A DNA stretch of 64,000 bases from a virus (IMGVR_UViG_3300044991_001407:31038-95037), one strand, 5' to 3'. Counted from the first letter of the stretch, positions 12,863 through 63,601 are shown. Notes: generated from the letters alone by a model not told the origin. Program-made: numbers and translations.

Positions 12863-13782
12863 TACCAACTCACCGTTCCCGTACCAAGTGTAAACTCATA
12901 CACCTTGTTTGCCCCAACTATTGTCTTGGTATAAGTAAGACCAGCGCTAATTGTCGTTATATCTGCGTATTGCGTACCGTATCTAATATATACAACGCCA
13001 GATCCACCAAGACCACCCTGATGTCCACCACCACCACGGTTAGCAGTGCTTCCAGAGCCAGCGCCAGCTCCACCACTTGATGGTACATAACCTCCGTCAA
13101 CATAAATGGCTTTACCACCTCCACCACCTGCACGAGTTATAGATGTTCCTGTTACACTGGATGCAATTCCGCTTCCTCCATTTGGAGTTGAACCTGATGC
13201 ACCACTTCCTCCACCACCTGCAGCACCACCACCGCCTCCACCATTAGCCCATTGGTAAGCCGCTACACCTCCAACTCCACCACTATTTCCCTGTCCAGTT
13301 GTTCCAGAACCACCACTATACCCACCAACAAAACCAGACGAACCACCACCAGCGCCAGAACCACCAGACTGCCCAGCTGCTGCCTCACCGTTTGTTCCAC
13401 CACCACCATTTGATGTAATACTCCCAAAAACAGAATTAACACCATTTGTGTTGTACGCACCAGCAGCACCAACTGTAACTGTGTACGATGTTCCAGAAGT
13501 AATGCTTAGCGGAGTTAGAGCACTCCCGTTTTGACCTGTTAATTCGCCAGAAATTGAAGAGCGATAACCACCTCCGCCACCTCCGCCTGAAATATTCCAG
13601 TATCCAGCGTTTGTTCCGCTACCGCCGCCTGCAACAACAAGGAATTCAACAGAGGGAGGAGGTATTGAGCCCCAATTACTTGCCCCTCTTTCTATCTGAA
13701 CAGTGCGGTTATCCCATATACCAGAAGCGGAGCTAGGACTTACTGCTTGTTTAGCACCAAGAATACTTCCGTTGGGTCGCAC
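12862..13782 (-). CDS. glycine-rich domain fibre protein
   Basis: 'VEFLVVAGGG...GGSGVVYIRY...VYEFTLGTGTVSW'. Confidence 0.8.
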   Translation of the reverse strand: MRPNGSILGAKQAVSPSSASGIWDNRTVQIERGASNWGSIPPPSVEFLVVAGGGSGTNAGYWNISGGGGGGGYRSSISGELTGQNGSALTPLSITSGTSYTVTVGAAGAYNTNGVNSVFGSITSNGGGGTNGEAAAGQSGGSGAGGGSSGFVGGYSGGSGTTGQGNSGGVGGVAAYQWANGGGGGGAAGGGGSGASGSTPNGGSGIASSVTGTSITRAGGGGGKAIYVDGGYVPSSGGAGAGSGSTANRGGGGHQGGLGGSGVVYIRYGTQYADITTISAGLTYTKTIVGANKVYEFTLGTGTVSW

Positions 13783-35830: not shown

Positions 35831-35902
35831 GCCCCTTTAGCTCAGCGGTAGAGCACTTCACTTGTAATGAAGCGGTCCTCGGTTCAAGTCCGAGAGGGGG
35901 CT
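35831..35902 (+). tRNA. tRNA-Thr(UGU)
   Basis: Acceptor GCCCCTT/AGGGGGC; anticodon arm CTTCA-CTTGTAA-TGAAG; T-loop TTCAAGT; no encoded CCA. Confidence 0.92.
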
Positions 35903-35923
35903 CTAAAAAAGGAGCAATGCAAT

Positions 35924-36559
35924 ATGCCAGAACTAAATGCGAATATTCCACCAATTGAATGCTATGTGCGTGGTAACTTCTTGAGAAATCAAGTTGATAG
36001 TCATGATATTAAATTCCCATGTGTAATTTTTGGGGTAGCGTCAATACCAGATAGAGCACCTGTGTTTCATTTCTTAATGGAAGATGGTGGTGTTTGGTGG
36101 AGAGCTCCAATAAATGCTTTTTGCTCATCCCTAGACAGCCCTGAGGTTGACCTGCATGATTTGGTTATGTGGAATAGTTTTTCTTCTCATATCGCAGTGA
36201 CAACTTTTGAACACATGCGTGGTATGTCTATGACCTATCTTGACAGGCGTAAGAATAAAGTTGATGGCAAATATATGTTCACATTGGACTGGCATACTCC
36301 TGATTCAAATATTATAAATACTGGATATTCAATTAATCCAGGTCAGCACAAGTGTGGTCATGTGATAAAAAGAAAAGATGGTAACTTTGCCATCCAGCCA
36401 AATAACAGAGTTAGGCTATGGGATCCTTCTTACACAACAAAGAAAGACGAAAGATTGATTGAAAGATTGATCAATACAAAAGTTTGGGATGTGGAAGATG
36501 GAGATAAATGGGTAACATCAGATGACGACAGATACGATTACGACATCGTTTCTGAATAG
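35924..36559 (+). CDS. conserved phage hypothetical protein
   Basis: 'MPELNANIPP..CYVRGNFL', 'GQHKCGH', 'GNFAIQPNNR'; SD AAGGAG. Confidence 0.75.
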   Translation: MPELNANIPPIECYVRGNFLRNQVDSHDIKFPCVIFGVASIPDRAPVFHFLMEDGGVWWRAPINAFCSSLDSPEVDLHDLVMWNSFSSHIAVTTFEHMRGMSMTYLDRRKNKVDGKYMFTLDWHTPDSNIINTGYSINPGQHKCGHVIKRKDGNFAIQPNNRVRLWDPSYTTKKDERLIERLINTKVWDVEDGDKWVTSDDDRYDYDIVSE

Positions 36560-36658
36560 ATGGGGGTGAACAATGTCAAAACAAGATAAGATTACACATG
36601 CAGTGTATTTCACACTTCATGCAATTACAATTGCTATACTATTAATTAAGTAATACAA

Positions 36659-36734
36659 TGGCGAGTAGCTCAGTTGGCAGAGCAAGGGACTGTTAATCCC
36701 TGGGTCGTAGGTTCAAGCCCTACCTCGCCAGCCA
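36659..36734 (+). tRNA. tRNA-Asn(GUU)
   Basis: Acceptor TGGCGAG/CTCGCCA, G73, encoded CCA; anticodon arm AGGGA-CTGTTAA-TCCCT. Confidence 0.93.
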
Positions 36735-37288
36735 TGTTTATTATTGATAACTATGTACCTATAGAAGAACAGTCGTATCTTTACGATTACTTTACTAATC
36801 CTAAAGTTCCTTACCGCTTCTATCGCAGCCATATTTACCACGAAGATGCTAAGTGGTCACATGCACCAATGCAGATGTCTCATCACCTGTATGAGTCGGA
36901 ATCAGATATTGCCTCAACTCATCTACCAGCAATCCAGAAGCTTGTAGGTAATCTAGCAGATAAGTTTGGAAATATCAACCTATTGCGGGCTAAAGTTAAT
37001 GTTACTTCCCCTTACCCCCCGATGATGCACTATGAGCCTCAAGTTCCTCATGTTGATTTAGAGTACGATAATGGCGAGCCCGTTGACCACAAAGTTCTTC
37101 TATATTACATAAATGACTCAGATGGACCAACTTACTTTTTTAACGAAGCACACGAGCTCCAAGACACCGTATATCCAAAGCCAGGGCGAGCTATCATCTT
37201 TGACGGTAGCAACATCCATGCCGCTTCAAATCCCGTTCGCTCTCCGTTTAGGATGGTTGTCAATATTGACTTCCAAACATACAGATGA
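36734..37288 (+). CDS. 2OG-Fe(II) oxygenase
   Basis: 'PHVD', 'LYYINDSDGPT', 'FDG...HA...P...R...N'; starts MFIIDN. Confidence 0.85.
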   Translation: MFIIDNYVPIEEQSYLYDYFTNPKVPYRFYRSHIYHEDAKWSHAPMQMSHHLYESESDIASTHLPAIQKLVGNLADKFGNINLLRAKVNVTSPYPPMMHYEPQVPHVDLEYDNGEPVDHKVLLYYINDSDGPTYFFNEAHELQDTVYPKPGRAIIFDGSNIHAASNPVRSPFRMVVNIDFQTYR

Positions 37289-37476
37289 ATTATTTTTTTT
37301 GGATATGGTGGTTATTTGAATTATGCCTGCTATTCTTAGCGGATATGGCATATTACATTCTTGGATTAATCTTATTGTGGTGGGTGGCAAAAATCGGACT
37401 AAGCCAAAGGCATCGTCAGAAATCCCTTACCAGGCATAGAGTTCGCAATAGCTTTCGCAAGTCTTTTGACGAGTGA
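37285..37476 (+). CDS. possible small membrane protein
   Basis: Hydrophobic ORF with ATGA coupling; the true start may be internal. Confidence 0.35.
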   Translation: MNYFFWIWWLFELCLLFLADMAYYILGLILLWWVAKIGLSQRHRQKSLTRHRVRNSFRKSFDE

Positions 37477-37890
37477 CTACTTCTTCTTGGAAAAGGATTC
37501 TCGCTTAGCGAGCAGAGCGTCAAAGTCTTTGATCTTGGTTTCGCCCATGTATCCCCAGGCATAACCTTCTTCAATGAGTTGTTCGTTGATTGACTTGGCA
37601 GCCCCATCAAGATATACCCAACCCAGAATGCGCCCGTACTTTTCCGAGCTGTCTGGCTTTTCTGTTTTGATCACTACATCTTTGGCGGCATCAATTGATT
37701 TCTTGAGCTTCTCTTTTACCTCAAGCCCCAGAACCTTCTCTCGTGCGTCTTTTGTGCGAGATTCAGGGGTATCAATTCCCGCCAGTCTAACTCTTTGCGT
37801 ATAGGAGATGTCAAACCCCAAATCAATGTCCACATCAATTGTATCTCCGTCAACAATCTTCAAAACCTTCTTCACACGATATTCGTACAT
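37477..37890 (-). CDS. thermonuclease (SNase-like)
   Basis: 'IVDGDT', 'RVRLAGIDTPE', 'KYGRILG'; leaderless TGGTATAAT-N6-ATG. Confidence 0.92.
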   Translation of the reverse strand: MYEYRVKKVLKIVDGDTIDVDIDLGFDISYTQRVRLAGIDTPESRTKDAREKVLGLEVKEKLKKSIDAAKDVVIKTEKPDSSEKYGRILGWVYLDGAAKSINEQLIEEGYAWGYMGETKIKDFDALLAKRESFSKKK

Positions 37891-37958
37891 CTTTACATTA
37901 TACCACGGTGGCTCCGAAAGTACTAAGAACCAAACCTTACCTGCTTTTGTTTGTGAGT

Positions 37959-38204
37959 TTAAGGTTCAATGAAAATACACTCGCCAGGGCATTCCTCGGC
38001 GGCTTCAATGACATCTTCCAGCCGATCATCGGCAAAAGAAGCTAAGCCAGCTGCGCCTTCGGGGTTTCCCACAGAGGAAGCAAATATTTTGTCTCCTTCT
38101 CGTACATATGCTAAACCATCGGGCATCATCGTAAACACATCGGGTGCTATCTCGGCGCACAGACCATCTCCAGTACATAAGTCTTGATCAATCCAAACTC
38201 TCAC
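37959..38204 (-). CDS. monocluster ferredoxin
   Basis: CxxDxxC ('CTGDGLC') ... 'CPGECI'; leaderless TGGTATACT-N7-GTG. Confidence 0.9.
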   Translation of the reverse strand: MRVWIDQDLCTGDGLCAEIAPDVFTMMPDGLAYVREGDKIFASSVGNPEGAAGLASFADDRLEDVIEAAEECPGECIFIEP

Positions 38205-38241
38205 AATAGGAAGTATACCATTCTTACGCTATAATGGGAAC

Positions 38242-38418
38242 ATGCCACAATACAACTATCGCTGTTCTAATGGGCATACTCATGAAGAGTTTAGATCCAT
38301 TCTGGAAGATAGTAAAACAGATGTTTGCCCCGAATGCAACGCTACGCTAAAACAAATCTATTCCCCGCCGATGATAGAACTCAAAGGCAGTGGATTTTAC
38401 CGTAACTCTAAGAAGTGA
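38242..38418 (+). CDS. FmdB-family zinc-ribbon protein (58 aa, not in ORF track)
   Basis: MPQYNYRCSNGH...CPEC...LKGSGFYRN; leaderless TATAAT-N6-ATG. Confidence 0.85.
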   Translation: MPQYNYRCSNGHTHEEFRSILEDSKTDVCPECNATLKQIYSPPMIELKGSGFYRNSKK

Positions 38419-38429
38419 TATAATACTTA

Positions 38430-38580
38430 TGGCACCCTAAAAGTGTCAAGCGGCAATCGTGATCTGCACTATCACCAGAGCAGAACGAATTTCGCTATCT
38501 TAGGACCGTTATAGTAACCATCCGCAAGGATGTTAACACACTGAGAAGAAAGAGAGACCGCCCGCAAAGCGGTCTCTTTT
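38430..38580 (+). ncRNA. candidate structured small RNA
   Basis: TGaTATAAT promoter at 38416-38424; several predicted helices including CATCC-GCAA-GGATG; own terminator; no convincing plus-strand ORF. Confidence 0.55.
38551..38580 (+). terminator. intrinsic terminator
   Basis: AGAGACCGC-ccgcaaa-GCGGTCTCT followed by TTT. Confidence 0.8.
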
Positions 38581-38731
38581 CTATTCTCCCGCATTTTAAA
38601 CCAACTCCCGCCCATTTCCCGCCCACGCCATTTTTTAGAAAAATTGAGTATATATTCCAAGAGTGTTATGCATCTCTCAGGAGGGGTGGGCGAACCTATG
38701 TTCGGTAGGGTCAATGGGGTCTAGTCCGAAA

Positions 38732-38776
38732 TTGGTCATTATGCGGATTTTTTCTTGGTCATTATGCGGATTTTTT
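38732..38776. repeat. 22-bp direct repeat x2
   Basis: TTGGTCATTATGCGGATTTTTT at 38732 and 38755. Confidence 0.85.
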
Positions 38777-38913
38777 TTCCGTCATTATCTAAGCCTTATT
38801 CCATAAGGGTTTTATAGGATTGGGTTATTCGTTGGGTGCTTGAATTGGTTAGCCATTGAACTATGCTTTAGTTATCGGGATGAACGAACGATTTCCGATA
38901 GGAGATAAGGAAC

Positions 38914-39354
38914 ATGGCAACCAAGATAAGCACCGCCAAGGCGGTAGAGAAATACAACATTCAAGCGGGAAAAAATCAACACCGCCCAATCGCTACCCAA
39001 GCGGTAGAGACAGTGAAGGGAAAATCCAAGGTTCACAAATTGGAAGCGTTTTGGTCAATGATTGACAACACCGCCAAGGCTACGAAAAAATGTCCACACC
39101 CAACACTACGAACCAACGGTGAAGCCCGTAGGCGTTGGTGTGCCGATAACAATATGCCCGTAGTGTTCGTGAACACCATTGCGGACAGGGTAGGTAGTCG
39201 CTGTGAAAATGTTGTCCGTGAGAAATTGGCGGTGTTAGCAATGATTAGCACCTACGCCGAAAAAATCGGATATGTTCGGGTATTGGACAGCAACACCGCC
39301 CAAGCCGAACCCAATCACCCAATGATCAATGCGGTGTACCTCTACAAGATGTAG
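38914..39354 (+). CDS. small basic protein, paralog of 40187..40606
   Basis: SD-like leader; shared MATK start and 'LAVLA...GY.R...LY.K/M' C-terminus; hairpin follows at 39358-39399. Confidence 0.8.
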   Translation: MATKISTAKAVEKYNIQAGKNQHRPIATQAVETVKGKSKVHKLEAFWSMIDNTAKATKKCPHPTLRTNGEARRRWCADNNMPVVFVNTIADRVGSRCENVVREKLAVLAMISTYAEKIGYVRVLDSNTAQAEPNHPMINAVYLYKM

Positions 39355-39476
39355 ACCGTTGGGGAGGGGAGAAATCCTCTCCCCAAAACCCCCTCCCAAC
39401 CATAGAGCCCCCATACAGTCTCTTTAGTGAATGATTACAGCACCTTTATAAACAACCAACAACAAGGAGAATACCA

Positions 39477-39677
39477 ATGAATACACAGACAAGACCAAAT
39501 ATCCGCATGAAGGGCATGCCCGTAGCGGTAGTACAGACAGGACATATCCTCACCATATGGGTCGCCAGCCCAACGGGTGATAGTTCAGACAGTCACTTAT
39601 TCACCATGCCATGTGTCAATGAGGCACAAGCCGAGACCATCATGCAGACATGGCTACAAGTATGGGGGCTCGTATGA
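39477..39677 (+). CDS. hypothetical protein
   Basis: Strong SD AAGGAG. Confidence 0.7.
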   Translation: MNTQTRPNIRMKGMPVAVVQTGHILTIWVASPTGDSSDSHLFTMPCVNEAQAETIMQTWLQVWGLV

Positions 39678-39814
39678 ATTGGTTCGGACTGTTCACCATG
39701 TTCCTCATGGTGACATCAGTAATCGTATGGTTCGCATACGAGGCAGGCTACAATAAAGCCATAAAAGATGTCACTATGTCCAAAACATGGTTAGACCTAA
39801 ACAATAGAAAATAA
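39674..39814 (+). CDS. small TM protein (46 aa, not in ORF track)
   Basis: MNWFGLFTMFLMVTSVIVWFAYEAGY...; ATGA coupling; hairpin follows at about 39829-39855. Confidence 0.6.
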   Translation: MNWFGLFTMFLMVTSVIVWFAYEAGYNKAIKDVTMSKTWLDLNNRK

Positions 39815-40186
39815 TCTCCATCCAAAAAGAACCCCCTGAGAAATCGGGGGGTTCTCTCCTTTACACCATGCCCACCATAGACGGTACACTCCGTATCTTT
39901 AGTGAATGTTTTTATGATGCTTTTACATGAGTGTAAGTTTACAAGAAAGGAACTTACATCCATGTAAGTTTTCAGGCGGGTGGAGCTGCACACGCAGGTA
40001 GCAGACGCACCCGCCGAGGCATACATGGTACATGTACCATTTTTAGTACATAAATGTAATCGCAATGTTGCTTTATCGCAACAACAGTGTTACCAATTCA
40101 CAACAACAGTGTTGTGTTTATGCAACAGTGCATACAAAAAAAATACGGGGCATCTCTGCCCCGTACCTTTTTGCTTTTTGTTTTGT

Positions 40187-40606
40187 TTACTTGCGATACA
40201 ACAAAACTTTGTAAGCGTCTGGGTTACTCTCATCACTTGCAAGTGTTGTACCATTTACGGCATATCGTGCATACCCAACATTTGCAAGCTTTGCATCAAA
40301 CTCTACAAGTGAGAGCATAATTGCAAGCACTGCCAACTCTGGGCGCATAACGCCTTTTTCATTTAGTTTTGACTTGCGAGCGCATACTTCATACTGCAAA
40401 ACACTTACGCCATGAGTGAGCGCATGCATGCGAGCATTGTCACCTAGTGGAAGTTTTGGCATGTCGTATGCCTTGTACATTGCAATTGCAAGTTCGGTAT
40501 GGTCTGCATACTGTCTTACCCTTGCTTTGCTTGCCTTTGTATTGTGCTTTGCCATCTTTGCAATGAGCGCACTAGCCCGTTGCTTTGGCGTTTGCTTTGT
40601 TGCCAT
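40187..40606 (-). CDS. small basic protein, paralog of 38914..39354
   Basis: Start MATKQ with GAAAGGCAAGGA leader; hairpin TACGGGGCA/TGCCCCGTA downstream. Confidence 0.8.
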   Translation of the reverse strand: MATKQTPKQRASALIAKMAKHNTKASKARVRQYADHTELAIAMYKAYDMPKLPLGDNARMHALTHGVSVLQYEVCARKSKLNEKGVMRPELAVLAIMLSLVEFDAKLANVGYARYAVNGTTLASDESNPDAYKVLLYRK

Positions 40607-41106
40607 GTCCTTGCCTTTCTGTAAGTGTGCCCCGTTTGGCACTGATGTAAGACTACACCCAATATGAGAAAACAACTCAAAAATAGCGTTACAATTTGAT
40701 GACAATTTAGTTACAAAATAACCTAAAGAATGTCACAAAACTTACACCAAACCCAAACCCAAAAACTCACCAGACGCATCAGGAGCCTCTTACAGCCGTG
40801 TAAGATTACACGAAGAAAACTTTATGAGGGGCTTCCAGGGAACCTTCTGGGTGGGCGTAAGGTGCTTCGCTAACAACCTTACGCCCATGTAAGTTTACAC
40901 CGTTGAGACTTTATGTTTAGTGTACATTTTGTATGTAAGTTTACAGCTATGTAACTTTATGAGAATGTATTTAGGGGATAACTTACACAAGGTCTGGAAT
41001 AGGGTCAAATTAGCCCGAAATCTAATGCTTGCAATTGGGTTGGGCATGGGGTAGGGTTGAGCGTAGCGAAACAAGTCGCACCTAAACGAAAGGCAAAACT
41101 TACACC

Positions 41107-41331
41107 ATGTCCTACCTAACCTGTAAGATTAGGAACCGCATAAATTACCGAGATGATCTACCGCATGAATATATGTTCATTGGTACAGATACAACCGAGA
41201 CACAACACGGGAAATATACGATCACTCAAATACACGCAACTTGTAAATATTGCGGGATACTGAACACCACGACACAAATTGAAGATAGCGAACATTCATA
41301 TTCATCAACTTTGGGCGAGACCCAAAACTAA
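41107..41331 (+). CDS. hypothetical protein with CxxC motif
   Basis: GAAAGGCAA leader; CKYC. Confidence 0.55.
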   Translation: MSYLTCKIRNRINYRDDLPHEYMFIGTDTTETQHGKYTITQIHATCKYCGILNTTTQIEDSEHSYSSTLGETQN

Positions 41332-41349
41332 CACGGGAGAAAACTTACA

Positions 41350-41613
41350 ATGAACACTTACGAAGTATCCTGGCAATTTGAGCAAGGCGATGCAGAATGG
41401 GCAGATAGTTATCTGTACTATGCCAATAGCGTTGAGGAACTAGGCAAAATTTTGCGCTCTATCAAAAATTCCAATTCAACATGGAATGGCAAGCACGATG
41501 AAGACGAACCTGACATGAGTGTAATTTTTGCACAAATTCTAGATGATGATCTAGATGACGCAGATGACCGAGACATTACAGATGAACTACCCGAAGATAT
41601 TCTTGCTGACTAA
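41350..41613 (+). CDS. very acidic small protein
   Basis: SD GGGAG; D/E-rich. Confidence 0.7.
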   Translation: MNTYEVSWQFEQGDAEWADSYLYYANSVEELGKILRSIKNSNSTWNGKHDEDEPDMSVIFAQILDDDLDDADDRDITDELPEDILAD

Positions 41614-41655
41614 AGTTACACAACCGCAAACTTACACGGAAAGGCAAATAGTGAT

Positions 41656-41865
41656 ATGAGAAAATATACCCCGCTTTTCAGAGAAGGTCAATGGAAGGAA
41701 ACCTTGAAAGAGAATTCATTTCTTATTTTCGTTATTATTCTTTGGATAAGTGCATTTGTTTCTGTGACTTTCCGAGAACCGAACACCAGTCGTTGTGAAA
41801 TCGCACCTAGTTACTGTGAAGATGTGTACGAAGAAGACTACTTTCATTACGAACCTAGAGGATAA
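41656..41865 (+). CDS. small TM protein
   Basis: GAAAGGCAA leader; one TM segment. Confidence 0.6.
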   Translation: MRKYTPLFREGQWKETLKENSFLIFVIILWISAFVSVTFREPNTSRCEIAPSYCEDVYEEDYFHYEPRG

Positions 41866-41897
41866 ACAATGAATTCTAAACTTACAGGAGTGTAATA

Positions 41898-41990
41898 ATG
41901 AACATACTAAAAATAATCTACGGTGTCCTTATTCTTTGGTCATGGATAATCTTGCCAGTAGCGTTAGCGTGGTATATGGAAAGAGAGTAA
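41898..41990 (+). CDS. 30-aa hydrophobic peptide (not in ORF track)
   Basis: SD AGGAG; MNILKIIYGVLILWSWIILPVALAWYMERE; terminator follows. Confidence 0.5.
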   Translation: MNILKIIYGVLILWSWIILPVALAWYMERE

Positions 41991-42010
41991 ACTTACAAGC
42001 AAGTAAGATA

Positions 42011-42040
42011 AGCCCCCGCCAAAAGCGGGGGTTTTTCTTT
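42011..42040 (+). terminator. intrinsic terminator
   Basis: GCCCCCGC-caaaa-GCGGGGGT followed by TTTTCTTT. Confidence 0.8.
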
Positions 42041-42468
42041 GCCTGTCTAAACTTACACAGCTGTAAGTTTACAGGCAGGTGTAACTTTTATGCCCTGCAA
42101 AAGTTACACCTGTGTAAGTTTGCACCGTTGTAAGTTAAGATTTAGTACATGGTTGTAAGTTAACTGAACATATCTTTATGATGTGAGAAAACTAACACTT
42201 GTGTAAGAGAACACGCATGTACTTTATGGAGCCCGCAAACTAACGCACCTGTAAGTTAAGGAATAGGTTGTGTAAGTTATCAAAAGTTGCTGTAAGTTTA
42301 GGGAAAAGGGTATCTGTAACCAGACTGTAACATTCCCTCTGATATATCTCATATGGGCATTGAGTTTCCCGACATTGTTACAAAATGATTACCTTGTGTT
42401 TGTGTTTGGGTTCCGATATTGTTTCTCTTATCAAGCAATAACGCTTGGTACTAACGAAAGGCAAGGAA

Positions 42469-42741
42469 ATGGAATTTGAAGTAATTGAAGAGTCAGCGAT
42501 GGAATTCGTTCCTCGTGGTCGTCAGAGTCTCGTTCCCCAGGAATTGGTGAACGCATTGCAGAAGTTGGGTAAGGGCAAGGCTCTTAAACTTACAGGCATG
42601 CAAGTTAACCCAACTGCCAAGACTTTCAAGACTGACAAGGCACGAATCAGTGCAACACTCCGCCAAGCCGCAAAACAGGCAAAGTGTGAGGTTCACATTC
42701 GCTGGAGCGTCAATGGCACTCCACAATTGGTAAAGAAGTAA
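42469..42741 (+). CDS. small basic PRGR-motif protein (putative DNA binder), paralog 1
   Basis: GAAAGGCAAGGA leader; 54/90 aa identical to 43229..43501 without gaps. Confidence 0.85.
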   Translation: MEFEVIEESAMEFVPRGRQSLVPQELVNALQKLGKGKALKLTGMQVNPTAKTFKTDKARISATLRQAAKQAKCEVHIRWSVNGTPQLVKK

Positions 42742-42789
42742 TTCACCCCCGAATTACTTCCGTGTAAGTTACACTTAACTTACACGCCT

Positions 42790-42827
42790 GTAAGGGAGCG
42801 GTAGCCTTCGGGCTACCGCTTTCTTAC
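42790..42827 (+). terminator. terminator hairpin
   Basis: AGCGGTAGCC-TTCG-GGCTACCGCT followed by TTCTT. Confidence 0.8.
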
Positions 42828-43228
42828 GCTCTAGTAAACTTACATGAGCGTAAACTTACACGGAGCTTGAGGGCGGGTGTAAGTTTAGTGCACTCCTAAA
42901 CTTACACCCGCTGTAAGATTACACATATGTAAGCTAAGTTTAGTATGTTTATGTAAGTTTACAGTCATGTACTTTATGTAATCCAAATACCAATGTAAGT
43001 TTACACCGAACACCTTTATGGGCAGCCCCGTGTAAGTTTTCTGAATTGGCTTGTAAGTTATCAAAACCTTGATAAAGGTTAGATATATCACTAAAACCCA
43101 TATGCAATAAGGGTTTTATCGGGGTTAGGTAGTATCAATGGGTTAGGGCTTGGACTAATCTGAGTGTTGTCAAAGCAATACCGCAATGACAACCGCTTAG
43201 GCGGTCTAAACTTACAGGAGAGGTAATT

Positions 43229-43501
43229 ATGGACTTTGAGTTCATTGACGAAGGGGATATGGATTTCGTACCCCGTGGGCGTAGGTCATCCGTACCTGCC
43301 GAACTGGTGACAGCCATTGCCAAATTGGGCAAGGGCAAAGCCATCCGCGTGTCATCCATGAAGGTGGATGTCACCAAGCCAACCGCAAAGACCGACAAGG
43401 CTCGGGTCTCGGCAACCATCCGCCAAGCAGGCGCACAAGCAAAGACTAAGGTCACGATTGCTTGGTCGCTTGACGGGACACCACAGGTACTGCGTAAGTA
43501 A
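43229..43501 (+). CDS. small basic PRGR-motif protein (putative DNA binder), paralog 2
   Basis: SD AGGAGAGG; paralog of 42469. Confidence 0.85.
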   Translation: MDFEFIDEGDMDFVPRGRRSSVPAELVTAIAKLGKGKAIRVSSMKVDVTKPTAKTDKARVSATIRQAGAQAKTKVTIAWSLDGTPQVLRK

Positions 43502-43524
43502 CCCCAAACTTACAGACCTGTAAG

Positions 43525-43556
43525 AGAAGCCCGCTGTTCGCAGCGGGCTTCTTTTA
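43525..43556 (+). terminator. terminator hairpin
   Basis: AGAAGCCCGCTG-TTCG-CAGCGGGCTTCT followed by TTT. Confidence 0.85.
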
Positions 43557-44265
43557 TCTTACCCTTGTGTAAGCTTACACACCAGTAAGTTATGGGCGGG
43601 TGTAATCTTACATTTTTGTAAGATTACACCCGTGTAAACTTACACCACTTCCTTATCTAATTGAGTATGTATTTTCTAATCCAAATCAGAACCTTTATCC
43701 TAATCCTATTTTCAATACTAACTTTATGGAAGCGTAAGGTTACAACCCTGTAAGATTACAGTCCTGTAAGCTTACACCGCTGGAGATAAATAAAAAGGTA
43801 AAGGCTTACCTATGCTTTTAGATAAACCTTTACCTTTATGAGGGGTCTTTTACCCAACTTATATTTTTGGGGATTACATCATTGTAATTTGTATCTAGTA
43901 CTAGAGTAGATACCTAACCTGTTGGTCACACCTAATCATTCCCCGATTTCAATTACAAATTCTTGGACATGATCTTTCACTAATATCCTTGTGATATATC
44001 ACACTAAAGTTTTGATGAGTATGTTCATTTAATTTTTGGGGAATATATACATTAATGTATTCAGAACCTTTATAGGGGGTCATATAGGGTCTCATTCTAT
44101 GTCGCATACAAAAATCCTAAGGAAATAGGGTATATTTCCCTTATTTTATATGGTTTTACTATAAAACACCTATGTATTTAATAGATTCTACACCTTTATT
44201 GAGCGCTTTTCACAACAATTTAGGTATACGGGTAGGTATACGGTATGCTATTCAAGGGCTAATCC

Positions 44266-44475
44266 CTATCTAATAGCTGTCCACCATTCATCTTCCTTAT
44301 CTTGATCTACTCCAGGTAATTGGTCTACCTTAGATTCAATCCTATTCAGACGATGAATGAGTTTCCTTTCTCTGAGGTAATCCTCTAGTATCTCTATCAT
44401 AGTAACCAATAGATATACCCCGCCAAATATCATGAAGTATGAGGCAACCATTTTTAGAAACAGATCCGTAGTCAT
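44266..44475 (-). CDS. small TM protein
   Basis: Start MTTDL; one TM; last gene of the leftward early block. Confidence 0.6.
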   Translation of the reverse strand: MTTDLFLKMVASYFMIFGGVYLLVTMIEILEDYLRERKLIHRLNRIESKVDQLPGVDQDKEDEWWTAIR

Positions 44476-44479
44476 ATCC

Positions 44480-44671
44480 TTATCCCTTCTCAATCGTAAA
44501 GTGAACACTATGCCCACCTGGGTTCTCATCCGTAGATACCATATGATCTATAACCTCATCCAGTTCCAATTCTGCATTACATTTCCTACAATAAACCAGA
44601 ACCTTTTCCCCAGCTTTTAAAACACTCAAAGGGAAGTTCCCATACAATTCCATAACACTATTGGCACTCAT
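44480..44671 (-). CDS. small CxxC protein
   Basis: CRKC; coupled to neighbours. Confidence 0.55.
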   Translation of the reverse strand: MSANSVMELYGNFPLSVLKAGEKVLVYCRKCNAELELDEVIDHMVSTDENPGGHSVHFTIEKG

Positions 44672-44828
44672 GCCCATACCCCATTTCATTCTCATCTAAT
44701 AACATTTCACACTCATCACAAATATCATAATAAAGCGTACCTGTTTCTATATCCTGAAGGGCTTTTACTCCCGCAATATTTATGCGAGCCATAGCCACTG
44801 CATCAGCTTTGTATTTAACCTTAGTCAT
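44658..44828 (-). CDS. small CxxC protein
   Basis: CDEC...GHEC. Confidence 0.55.
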   Translation of the reverse strand: MTKVKYKADAVAMARINIAGVKALQDIETGTLYYDICDECEMLLDENEMGYGHECQ

Positions 44829-44979
44829 TTTTTGCCACCTGGTCCTTTTCAATAATTAATTTCATTCGTTCCACTATTTTCTTAACTTCTGTATAATGCC
44901 ATACTGGTCTATCAACATAGCCTTCTTCTAATTTAGATAGTATCCTAATAACCCATTCCATCTCTTGGCTATTAATCAA
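44821..44979 (-). CDS. hypothetical protein
   Basis: Fills the gap between coupled genes; start uncertain. Confidence 0.4.
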   Translation of the reverse strand: MINSQEMEWVIRILSKLEEGYVDRPVWHYTEVKKIVERMKLIIEKDQVAKND

Positions 44980-45184
44980 GATAATCCTCTTTCCATTGCT
45001 GAACAAGAGCTTTGAGGTTATCAAGGATCTTATAGATTTCGCTAAAGTCAGGGTGATCTTTTATCACAACCCCGATCCTGGTATGTTCCATATCCTCAAT
45101 GAAACCTCTAACAGTTTCTACACCCTTCTCTAATTCTTCAAGGGTTAAATCCATAGCCATTGTCTTAGTTATTCCCTGTTCCAT
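44972..45184 (-). CDS. hypothetical protein
   Basis: ORF track; operon context. Confidence 0.6.
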   Translation of the reverse strand: MEQGITKTMAMDLTLEELEKGVETVRGFIEDMEHTRIGVVIKDHPDFSEIYKILDNLKALVQQWKEDYLD

Positions 45185-45381
45185 TTATACTCTTCTTTCC
45201 ATTGAGTTCCGTATTGATCATGCTTTTCAATTGCTCTTCTAACCACATGAATATGAAACTGAATGCCAGCAAACATGCCAACTCCTAATGCCAATATTGT
45301 CTTCAACTTAACTCCCTAGTAATAAAATCATAATAAAGATACCGATAATTCCTAACCCAATTCTAACCATTTCAAATGTCA

Positions 45382-45711
45382 TTAAAACTCCTCCTTTTTA
45401 AACCCCAATCCGTATGTATTATCGCATTCCATAATACGACTAAACCCATCTCTCATAACCTTAGCTTGATGCGAACCGCAGCAATAGTCTTGATTATACC
45501 TACTTAGTTTAGTCGCACAATTAACATAACAACAAATACCAGTATTTAGCTTTGAAACATCAAAACCAATTTCTGATAATTTCTTGATAACTCTGGTTTT
45601 TCTTGATTCATTTCTCTTACGATTTATCGCAAGACGAGCTTCAGGATCAACCTTCATCAAAGCTTTTTTCTTTTCGTATTTCACTTTCCTTGACTCTGGA
45701 CTATATGCCAT
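45382..45711 (-). CDS. basic Cys/His (possible Zn-finger) protein
   Basis: 'C.YVNC.TKLSRYN...CCGSH'. Confidence 0.65.
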   Translation of the reverse strand: MAYSPESRKVKYEKKKALMKVDPEARLAINRKRNESRKTRVIKKLSEIGFDVSKLNTGICCYVNCATKLSRYNQDYCCGSHQAKVMRDGFSRIMECDNTYGLGFKKEEF

Positions 45712-45770
45712 TTGTTCCCTTTTATATATGATAAAAATATTGTTGATATATTAGTTTTTCCTAATGATAA

Positions 45771-46319
45771 TTATAGCTCTACCTTAGGATACATTCCCAT
45801 CTCTTTTTCCCCTAGTTTTAGGTCATCTTTGAACCTGGTCAATGTCTGAACATAAGGTCTAGCTGACTCTAAACTCACTAATGATCTACCATCAAATTCA
45901 TCTAGAATTTCTTTCCTGACATAAACAAAATTCTCTTCCCAATTCTTAGGGTCAATCATATCGTGAATCCTTTGTAGGATAAGTAACATACCCAATGAGT
46001 TATCTGTAATCTCCCAATTTTCACAAGATGTTCTTACAGCATCAATCACACTTGGATTATCAATAGTTTGTGATTCTAAATGGTCATCATAAACATCATC
46101 ATCAATGATATGACCAACGGCACATTTAAGTGTGTCAATAATCGTACCTTGATCATCTCTTATAAAACCACGATAAACGCAATCTCCACTGCTATCCCAT
46201 GTTTCAGTTTCATAATCAAATACACTCTCTTGTGATTTCTCACCCTGTATCAAAAGGTTTGAAACAATATAATCCATCACTTGCATGTCATTTTCTAAAT
46301 CACTCAATTGCATAGTCAT
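45771..46319 (-). CDS. hypothetical protein, paralog of 48846
   Basis: 'C.YR...CAVG..I.D..Y...E...LQ.IHD'. Confidence 0.75.
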   Translation of the reverse strand: MTMQLSDLENDMQVMDYIVSNLLIQGEKSQESVFDYETETWDSSGDCVYRGFIRDDQGTIIDTLKCAVGHIIDDDVYDDHLESQTIDNPSVIDAVRTSCENWEITDNSLGMLLILQRIHDMIDPKNWEENFVYVRKEILDEFDGRSLVSLESARPYVQTLTRFKDDLKLGEKEMGMYPKVEL

Positions 46320-63206: not shown

Positions 63207-63442
63207 TGACTAATCCAATCTTTTAGATTTATGCTGATATACGAAAATATCACACTAAATCTCTTAGAAATAGTGTGATATAAAATTTGACCTAATTGCT
63301 GAACTAATGTGTCGTTCATTGAGTAATAACGATATCGGGGAAACTAATCAAAAAAAACCTGCGTGAAAATATTTCTTTTATATTTCTTTTGCATCGGAAA
63401 AGTATGCAGAAAACAAATCAGCTCTTATATAAACTTTTACAT

Positions 63443-63487
63443 AAAAAAACTTACAGCCCCGTGTAAGATTACAGGGCTGTAAGTTTT
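63443..63487 (-). terminator. terminator hairpin built from TGTAAnnTTACA boxes
   Basis: AAAACTTACAGCCC/GGGCTGTAAGTTTT stem with TGTAAGATTACA in the loop; T7 tract on the minus strand. Confidence 0.7.
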
Positions 63488-63601
63488 CCGCTTGAATATT
63501 ATTATTTATATTAAGAATTAGCTAATGAATCACCAAGCATCTTTTAGCCAATATTTTACCAAATTTTAATATGTATTTCATGACCAACTAGGGTCATTTC
63601 A

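Follow-up and report, generated by a model that had tools for sequence, protein, structure and literature searches.

Phased palindromic boxes in a small-gene module of an uncultured freshwater phage: a candidate operator and promoter array

Results

The island and its genes

Here we describe an island of short palindromic boxes in a 64,000-nt window of DNA, which covers positions 31038-95037 of the 95,037-bp virus record IMGVR_UViG_3300044991_001407 (G000, 91% complete). By the window we mean this whole stretch, and positions are counted from its first letter unless another record is named. The record is that of a tailed phage and encodes a portal, a protease-scaffold, a major capsid protein and a ribonucleotide reductase; long tail genes are found elsewhere on it, to the left of the window. 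The nearest named relatives of the portal are the portals of large Streptomyces siphophages, to which it is about 47% identical. All runs containing the stretch are lake-water metagenomes, and no RNA run was listed among them.

The island comprises about ten small conserved genes, which we delimited by comparing relatives (Table 1). Two of these encode paralogous 90-amino-acid (aa) proteins of a family that we call RGR. Plus-strand genes extend from about 30.8 to 43.5 kb and converge with a minus-strand block just to the right of the island. The small minus-strand genes there form a low-GC block from 44.27 kb to at least 63.2 kb. Between the island genes lie four strong intrinsic terminators.

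The island proteins had no usable match in Pfam, PHROGs or ESM Atlas, and among named phage records neither near and distant searches with the island DNA nor a protein search with RGR gene a returned a match. An Rfam search of 37000-46000 yielded only sub-threshold chance rows, and a literature search returned no phage report of the box sequences.

Palindromic boxes are confined to the island and phased

The exact box, TGTAANNTTACA (TGTAA-NN-TTACA), occurs 15 times in the window, where 0.21 copies are expected and the richest shuffle contained three. Fourteen copies lie at 39932-43776 and the remaining one at 63462. A scan of the complete 95,037-bp record found these 15 sites and none further. 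All 14 island boxes are intergenic, between conserved open reading frames (ORFs). A preliminary description of this DNA had reported 14 exact boxes in the island with a single one outside, almost all intergenic and mostly phased at 16 bp, and each of these observations was reproduced here.

The phasing becomes clear from the half-sites, TGTAA and TTACA, of which there are 85 between 39800 and 43900. The offset from TGTAA to TTACA peaks at 7 (a 2-bp gap, 14 times), and that from TTACA to TGTAA peaks at 9 (a 4-bp gap, 15 times). Half-sites in the same orientation are exactly 16 bp apart in 15 pairs, compared with 0.83 under random placement (maximum 7 in 2000 trials). The everted pairs, TTACA-N4-TGTAA, whose 4-bp gap makes them hairpin-capable, are as frequent as the boxes with their 2-bp gap, and each run can therefore be read as one unbroken alternation of half-sites. 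The runs listed in the preliminary description are all present, with several degenerate members, such as CGTAAGGTTACA at 43733 and TGTAAGTTTGCA at 42113. Other half-sites stand alone or follow one another as direct repeats (42113-42330). Single AAACTTACA half-sites adjoin the ribosome-binding sites of the genes at 41107-41990, and CCTTTATA begins 34 nt upstream of the ATG of the 66-aa gene (39477).

Table 1. Features of the island and of the distal site, with positions in the window
Feature	Position	Strand	Remarks
146-aa protein	38914-39354	+	distant paralog of the 139-aa protein
66-aa protein	39477-39677	+	small conserved gene
54-aa protein	39650-39814	+	small conserved gene; then terminator 39828-39855
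First box cluster	39923-39975		TTACA, box 39932-39943, TTACA-N4-TGTAA at 39954/39963; downstream of terminator 39828-39855
139-aa protein	40187-40606	-	sole minus-strand gene of the island; distant paralog of the 146-aa protein
Gap between the divergent 139-aa and 74-aa genes	40742-40990	+	boxes 40799, 40888, 40934
Hairpin	40852-40887		TGGGCGTAAGGT..ACCTTACGCCCA; abuts box 40888
CTTTATG	40820, 40909, 40955		each starts 9 bp 3' of boxes 40799, 40888, 40934
74-aa protein	41107-41331	+	small gene
87-aa protein	41350-41613	+	small gene
69-aa protein	41656-41865	+	small gene
30-aa protein	41898-41990	+	small gene; then terminator 42010-42034
Gap upstream of RGR gene a	42046-42335	+	TTACA-N4-box 42046-42073; 14-bp-stem hairpin 42076-42112
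Direct TGTAAG(TT) half-sites, nine copies	42113-42330		CTTTATG at 42174, 42222
RGR paralog a, 90 aa	42469-42741	+	then terminator 42798-42825
Gap upstream of RGR gene b	42761-43065	+	hairpins 42761-42786 and 42873-42911 (16-bp stem)
Boxes in the RGR gene b gap	42912, 42952, 42994		CTTTATG 8 bp after 42952 and 42994
TGTAAGTT half-sites	43031, 43052		upstream of RGR gene b
RGR paralog b, 90 aa	43229-43501	+	60% identical to paralog a; then terminator 43521-43556
Array after RGR gene b	43510-43650	+	terminator 43521-43556; box 43568
Perfect palindrome, 16-bp stem	43597-43632		contains boxes 43601, 43617
Box	43633		then CCTTATC-taatt-GAGTAT
Terminal phased triple	43733-43776		degenerate CGTAAGGTTACA, boxes 43749, 43765
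Conserved non-coding stretch	43780-44266		about 500 bp, AT-richer; at the convergence of plus- and minus-strand gene blocks; inverted repeat 43794-43837; CCTTTAT 43833, 44067, 44193; TTACA-N4-TGTAA 43874/43883; GTGATATATCAC palindrome at about 43996
Distal box 63462-63473	63446-63493	-	in the loop of a hairpin with a 14-17-bp stem; intergenic gap 63207-63601, between minus-strand genes

Long palindromes and a directional motif accompany the boxes

Every gap of the module combines three cis elements: the box, a long palindrome and the strand-specific motif CCTTTAT(G/C). The long palindromes are perfect in cases such as 40852-40887, 42076-42112, 42873-42911 and 43597-43632, with the base GGGYGTAA...TTACRCCC. 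Their arms start with (C/T)(G/A)GG(T/C)GTAA, and a box usually follows directly. Hairpins with a stem of at least 12 bp number ten in the island and 0.07 in shuffles. Their z-scores on folding lie between -5.7 and -11, within a range of -5.4 to -11 for single-strand folds.

Comparison of ten orthologous or paralogous hairpins from seven genomes revealed five pairs altered on both sides, a level of compensatory change that none of 500 shuffles reached. These changes reach inside the half-site itself, as in CGTAA/TTACG and TGTGA/TCACA. Considering that both arms change together, palindromy as such is under selection. Formation of a hairpin or cruciform, at the level of DNA or RNA, is probably part of the mechanism.

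The third element is directional. On the plus strand of the island CTTTATG occurs nine times, and on the minus strand not once. Of 116 boxes at seven non-redundant loci, 29 are followed by CTTTAT after 8-9 bp (31 within 16 bp) on the strand of gene direction, compared with a single one on the other strand. Short runs of (A)CCTTTAT(G/C) with a spacing of 11-12 bp are also found in relatives. All of them repeat, at corresponding positions, the composite unit of palindrome, box, 8-9 bp and CCTTTAT(G/C), which is sometimes followed by a TAGTGT-like hexamer.

No recognisable sigma factor was found in the phage, and the DxDGD motif of two-barrel polymerases was absent in every frame. A search for a T7-type single-subunit polymerase gave no match, but the control for that search was silent too. 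At 38396-38580, a terminator-bounded, ORF-free stretch lies behind a canonical extended -10 promoter (TTTACC, 17 bp, TATAAT with TG), which suggests that ordinary sigma-70 promoters are read by the host polymerase, unlike the box-CCTTTAT units. A further palindrome, TGATATATCA, resembles an extended -10 element on both strands. It is located at about 42340-42350 and 43080-43090, some 110-150 nt upstream of the RGR genes, and at about 43995-44006, within the non-coding DNA to the right of the island, and it is also present at two related loci (L010 and L024).

Several identities for these elements were tried and rejected. N4-type hairpin promoters, which serve a virion RNA polymerase, have a 5-7-bp stem and a 3-nt loop; the stems here measure 11-18 bp and the loops 4-14 nt. 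CCTTTATG could not be the start codon of short ORFs, since the ATG is missing from variants with a final C or A. DnaA boxes within CCTTTATCC fitted only some copies, and promoters of the Bacteroidota, extracytoplasmic function (ECF) and sigma-54 types were dropped for lack of fit.

A different hairpin is found in the leaders of many island genes (42433-42448, 43166-43193, about 41050-41075 and, on the minus strand, about 40620-40640). Its stem is variable, its loop region is conserved as GCAAT(A/C)(A/C)CGC, and a GAAAGG ribosome-binding site follows within a few bases. Leader hairpins occupy matching places in four relatives (L012, L016, L027 and L028). They could represent an RNA-level control or stability element.

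Box sequences switch between clades while their geometry is retained

The motif also clusters in the island of relatives. Those with RGR proteins 55-71% identical to the ones described here carry 10-26 exact boxes each, in matching gaps, and the three-part grammar is conserved across a clade of 80-110-kb freshwater phages. In the complete relative G001 (109,177 bp, 100% complete), 10 of the 11 boxes lie in the island and one is about 21.5 kb away. This resembles the window, where the solitary distal box is about 20 kb from the island; relatives have such a site at a like distance, in their own box type. The hairpin around the distal box looks terminator-like because a minus-strand T-run follows it.

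Distant loci, which were located by search with the RGR protein, show three box types. The first is TGTAA-NN-TTACA, mostly in the form TGTAATATTACA. The other two are TCTAA-CG-TTAGA and CTTAA-CG-TTAAG. The loci L070 and L071 carry 27-28 copies of CTAACGTTAG and not a single TGTAA box, and L074 carries 20 copies of TTAACGTTAA. All three types share the 5-2-5 geometry and the core TAA-NN-TTA, and in each of them the hairpins keep their GGGTGTAAC...GTTACACCC base and CTTTAT its strand bias near the boxes. In genomes with the other box types, too, a pair of outliers in the respective type lies about 21 kb from the island. Within 4 kb on either side of L070 and L074, RGR is the only one of the island protein families that could be detected. 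Since the box sequence changes while the geometry stays and RGR is retained, a phage-encoded binder appears to co-evolve with the box.

In a set of 2.9 million viral contigs, double-box arrays are essentially limited to this group of phages, and the genomes of 185,579 prokaryote species gave only unrelated, single double-box hits. Their near-absence from prokaryotes argues against the regulon of a common host factor.

One palindrome, TAACGTTA, differs in abundance between box types. It has no copies in four records of the TGTAA type (G008-G011, the records of L067, L077, L068 and L073; 90-109 kb), in which a reversed control has 5-11, and 36-43 copies in the genomes that use it as box core. 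Its absence may reflect avoidance of the AACGTT restriction site or of cross-talk between box types.

The RGR protein family

A profile search of 1.84 billion representatives placed the RGR family in 105 clusters at 50% identity. R16-G17-R18 is invariant in all 29 diverse members that were aligned. The core of an AT-hook is Arg-Gly-Arg-Pro in a basic patch. In the RGR family, K usually comes after the invariant R-G-R and P, K or R before it, and the order RGRP is absent. Each locus holds two or three RGR genes, every one of them flanked by arrays.

In relatives, a third RGR paralog of 107-114 aa lies on the minus strand (L012 7889-8212, L028 9498-9839, L010 5508-5834). It is flanked by the triple-box array on one side and the terminal double box on the other, and the counterpart of the terminal array of the window lies upstream of it. 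The corresponding interval of the window, 43650-43733, has lost this gene and kept both arrays.

Structures were predicted for the 90-aa RGR protein and the 139-aa protein (predicted local distance difference test, pLDDT, 83 and 81). Neither model has an N-terminal strand-helix-helix. Searches of both with Foldseek and VIA-align gave weak, non-specific rows only, with a best Z of 5.8 for the 90-aa and 4.3 for the 139-aa model. The rows included IF3-C, R3H, SepF-like and RepE winged-helix structures, none of them prominent. By profile comparison, the RGR family and the 139/146-aa family are unrelated.

Discussion

A putative operator array for the RGR paralogs

We suggest, with confidence slightly above even, that the boxes serve as operators, at which a dimeric protein of the phage, probably represented by the RGR paralogs, would control a multi-promoter module together with a distal site. 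The fixed, strand-specific link between box and CCTTTAT runs in gene direction and is present in every gap between terminator-bounded genes, which points to transcription control. This role was missing from the list in the preliminary description.

In such a system, the roughly ten small genes would form a compact, self-contained expression module, in which every gene is equipped with a leader hairpin, a ribosome-binding site and an intrinsic terminator. The predicted binder, with an invariant Arg-Gly-Arg arm that would suit the constant core TAA-NN-TTA, would cover the upstream part (about -40 to -29) of the promoter-like box-CCTTTAT units. Phased runs would lead to cooperative occupancy. The many transcription units of the module and the site 20 kb away would thereby be switched jointly, either on or off. 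The RGR paralogs are the best candidate for this binder, judging from what is retained around the changing boxes.

A number of observations weigh against this proposal. The RGR model matches no known DNA-binding fold, and in the TGTAA clade the box might instead be bound by another protein of the module, such as the 74-aa protein or one of the 139/146-aa family. Because the distant loci were found through the RGR protein, the association of RGR with the arrays is partly built into the search. As for the promoter function proposed for the units, CCTTTAT is not recognisable as a sigma-70 -10 element, and consensus sigma-70 promoters are not enriched in the island (7 compared with 14.9 expected). 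The TTTACA of the box resembles a -35 element, but nAnnnT hexamers 17-18 bp downstream of TTACA show no clear enrichment. Finally, a dimer on B-form DNA does not need compensatory changes in the palindromes, and their presence suggests that hairpin or cruciform formation matters.

The preliminary description had proposed that a dedicated protein recognises the phased palindromes. That part has gained support, as the arrays are conserved and their geometry is kept when the box changes and RGR is retained. The roles that it proposed for the protein did not, and are considered with the alternatives below.

Alternative explanations

The strongest alternative is that palindromy acts mainly through extruded DNA hairpins or RNA stem-loops, which might serve as promoter elements dependent on supercoiling, as sites at which RNA is processed or stabilised, or as conditional terminators. 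On this view, simple boxes would be by-products or loop elements. The excess of long stems, their strong fold z-scores and the compensatory pairs are all in line with this, and the distal box at 63462 lies within the loop of a terminator-like hairpin. The hairpin base is kept even in clades with other boxes. Conversely, most exact boxes, with their 2-bp gap, are unable to form a stable hairpin alone, and half-sites are also used singly and in the direct repeats at 42113-42330. Most long palindromes lie between an upstream terminator and downstream CCTTTAT units, and may therefore be transcribed by read-through only. A polymerase that reads hairpins was not found, in a search whose control was silent. 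Overall, we regard hairpins as the main basis of the array as unlikely, and note that their action can coexist with protein binding.

A bolder version of protein binding joins the two ideas, and we rate it as speculative and slightly less probable again. In this version, the small RGR proteins would represent a new nucleic-acid-binding family, and their fold would be one that had not been tied to DNA binding before. They would read the TAA-NN-TTA palindromes partly as extruded hairpins and coat the island. Together with the distal site at about 20 kb, they would enclose the whole low-GC block of small genes, or draw it into a loop, as a single co-regulated domain, forming a chromatin-like phage switch whose specificity changes between clades.

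The island, or its right end at 43560-44266, might instead be a replication origin, with the boxes and CCTTTAT as iterons for a phage initiator. Iteron origins are typically arrays of short dyad or direct repeats. Relatives have CCTTTAT runs at 11-12 bp beside the triple box (L028 9362-9421), and a conserved, AT-richer non-coding stretch of about 500 bp lies at the convergence point. Moreover, an unrelated lambdoid phage (L058) has five TGTAATTTTACA boxes in an O-like gene, beside a DnaB-like helicase, which is the classic arrangement of an origin. Against an origin, the sites are spread over about 4 kb; they occupy six or more gaps, every one of which is linked with a transcription unit, and another site is 20 kb away. 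The only replication gene recognised is that of the DnaB-like helicase, which G001 carries at a distance of about 39 kb from its island. DnaA boxes show neither enrichment nor clustering, and the O-like protein of L058 is unrelated to either island family by profile comparison. Replication initiation, one of the roles proposed at the outset, is thus improbable.

The doubts are greater for a genome terminus, a long terminal repeat or a site of packaging or injection control, modelled on the terminal-repeat host-takeover modules of SPO1 and T5. The module of SPO1 consists of many small genes with their own promoters and terminators, and the layout of the island resembles it by analogy. Assembled contigs, from which depth and borders were taken, reach about twice the depth of the flanks over roughly 36.7-45/46.5 kb in three runs (X1, X6 and X11), and in many relatives the contig stops 270-750 bp beyond the right side of the terminal double box. 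The kinship of the portal with those of large Streptomyces siphophages would also suit a terminus. Yet one contig covers 36664-46499 unbroken, across the island and the right border, and no pile-up of ends was reported. This speaks against the packaging role in the preliminary description. The extent of the doubled depth varies between runs, as expected of co-occurring strains that share the stretch, which favours shared strains over a long terminal repeat. We consider a terminus quite improbable.

The contigs revealed some further variation to the left of the island. Several sequences join at 36658-36666, and a variant in three runs joins 36723 to 38621, skipping genes for an oxygenase, a nuclease, a ferredoxin and a zinc ribbon. 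G001 is a circular permutation of the G000 record. The ends of its contig fall between the homologue of the window gene at 35867-36559 and the ferredoxin gene, which is the variable spot where the run contigs branch.

Least probable is that the arrays act as a centromere, or as a tether, for a phage genome kept like a plasmid (ParR/parC, TubR/tubC, omega): phased arrays near promoters of small putative DNA-binding proteins do recall parC/ParR and omega heptads, and the dispersed extra site would fit, but neither G000 nor the complete G001 matched ParA (PF13614), ParB (PF02195) or tubulin (PF00091), all with positive controls, or had an integrase or other temperate or plasmid sign, so that the segregation role suggested earlier found no support. 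A search for ParM (PF06406) gave no match either, but was equally silent in the control genomes.

Significance

Clade-specific repeats are common in phages, as illustrated by stoperators, the dyads of Cluster O and the start-associated and extended start-associated sequences (SAS/ESAS), and most of them lack an assigned function or binder. Our putative operator array differs in that the island ties three cis elements to a single candidate protein family, represented by 105 clusters. Since the box type has switched naturally, specificity can be tested directly with synthetic genes and oligonucleotides, and culture of the host is not needed. If the RGR proteins do bind the boxes, they would provide a new small DNA-binding fold and orthogonal protein-operator pairs. 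They would also offer a view of how large uncultured freshwater phages time a module of small, probably host-directed genes.

Comparison with known systems

The omega heptads of inc18 plasmids and ParR/parC of plasmid R1 are contiguous repeats of mixed orientation that precede several promoters, bound cooperatively by a small dimer that regulates its own synthesis. These dimers belong to the ribbon-helix-helix class and act as centromere proteins in partnership with a motor, ParA or ParM. The array logic of the island is similar, but no motor gene was found here and the model of the candidate has no ribbon-helix-helix.

In T4 middle promoters, the MotA box replaces the -35 element at a fixed short distance from a downstream element. 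The island shares with these a phage box near a downstream element, and with the SPO1 module small genes that have their own terminators and, as we infer, their own promoters. Unlike in T4, there is no homologue of MotA or AsiA, CCTTTAT is not a sigma-70 -10 element, and the box is palindromic and repeated.

The lambdoid L058 (IMGVR_UViG_3300035506_000064) provides a comparison with lambda-type iterons. Its five TGTAATTTTACA boxes lie at 13586-13687, inside a 302-aa O-like gene beside the DnaB-like helicase and a Cro/CI pair, and are probable origin iterons that contain the 12-bp palindrome of the island. This suggests that the same palindrome is able to serve an origin elsewhere. The repeats of L058 are in the initiator gene, whereas those of the window lie between small genes, far from replication genes.

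Stoperators of Cluster A mycobacteriophages, bound by L5 gp71-type repressors, are asymmetric 13-bp sites that are bound by a monomer, distributed genome-wide and oriented with transcription (PMC9283540, PMC6550527). As here, many copies of a short, phage-specific site lie in small gaps between genes. They are occupied by a phage-encoded regulator that acts on transcription at numerous positions, as we propose for the boxes, and the specificities of site and protein co-evolve between sub-clades. In contrast, the island sites are dyad-symmetric, 16-bp phased and contained within 4 kb, and are combined with hairpins and a second motif. Neither a helix-turn-helix repressor nor an integrase was found here, unlike in the stoperator phages.

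Cluster O phages have more than 30 dyad-symmetric 17-bp sites, thought to be bound by a dimeric regulator (PMC4351075), and the SAS/ESAS of Cluster K combine a motif beside start codons with inverted repeats of variable spacer (PMC3203893). Both are clade-specific, of unknown function and absent from host genomes (PMC4351075, PMC3203893). The AAACTTACA half-sites beside ribosome-binding sites and the palindromes of variable spacer described here recall SAS/ESAS. The repeats of Clusters O and K are nevertheless single and unphased, with other sequences and in another lineage, and no co-varying family of paralogous small proteins or directional partner has been described for them. Judging from these comparisons, what appears to be new in the island is the combination of phased palindromes, a three-part grammar, co-varying box types and a paralogous candidate binder whose predicted structure resembles none of the folds known to bind DNA.

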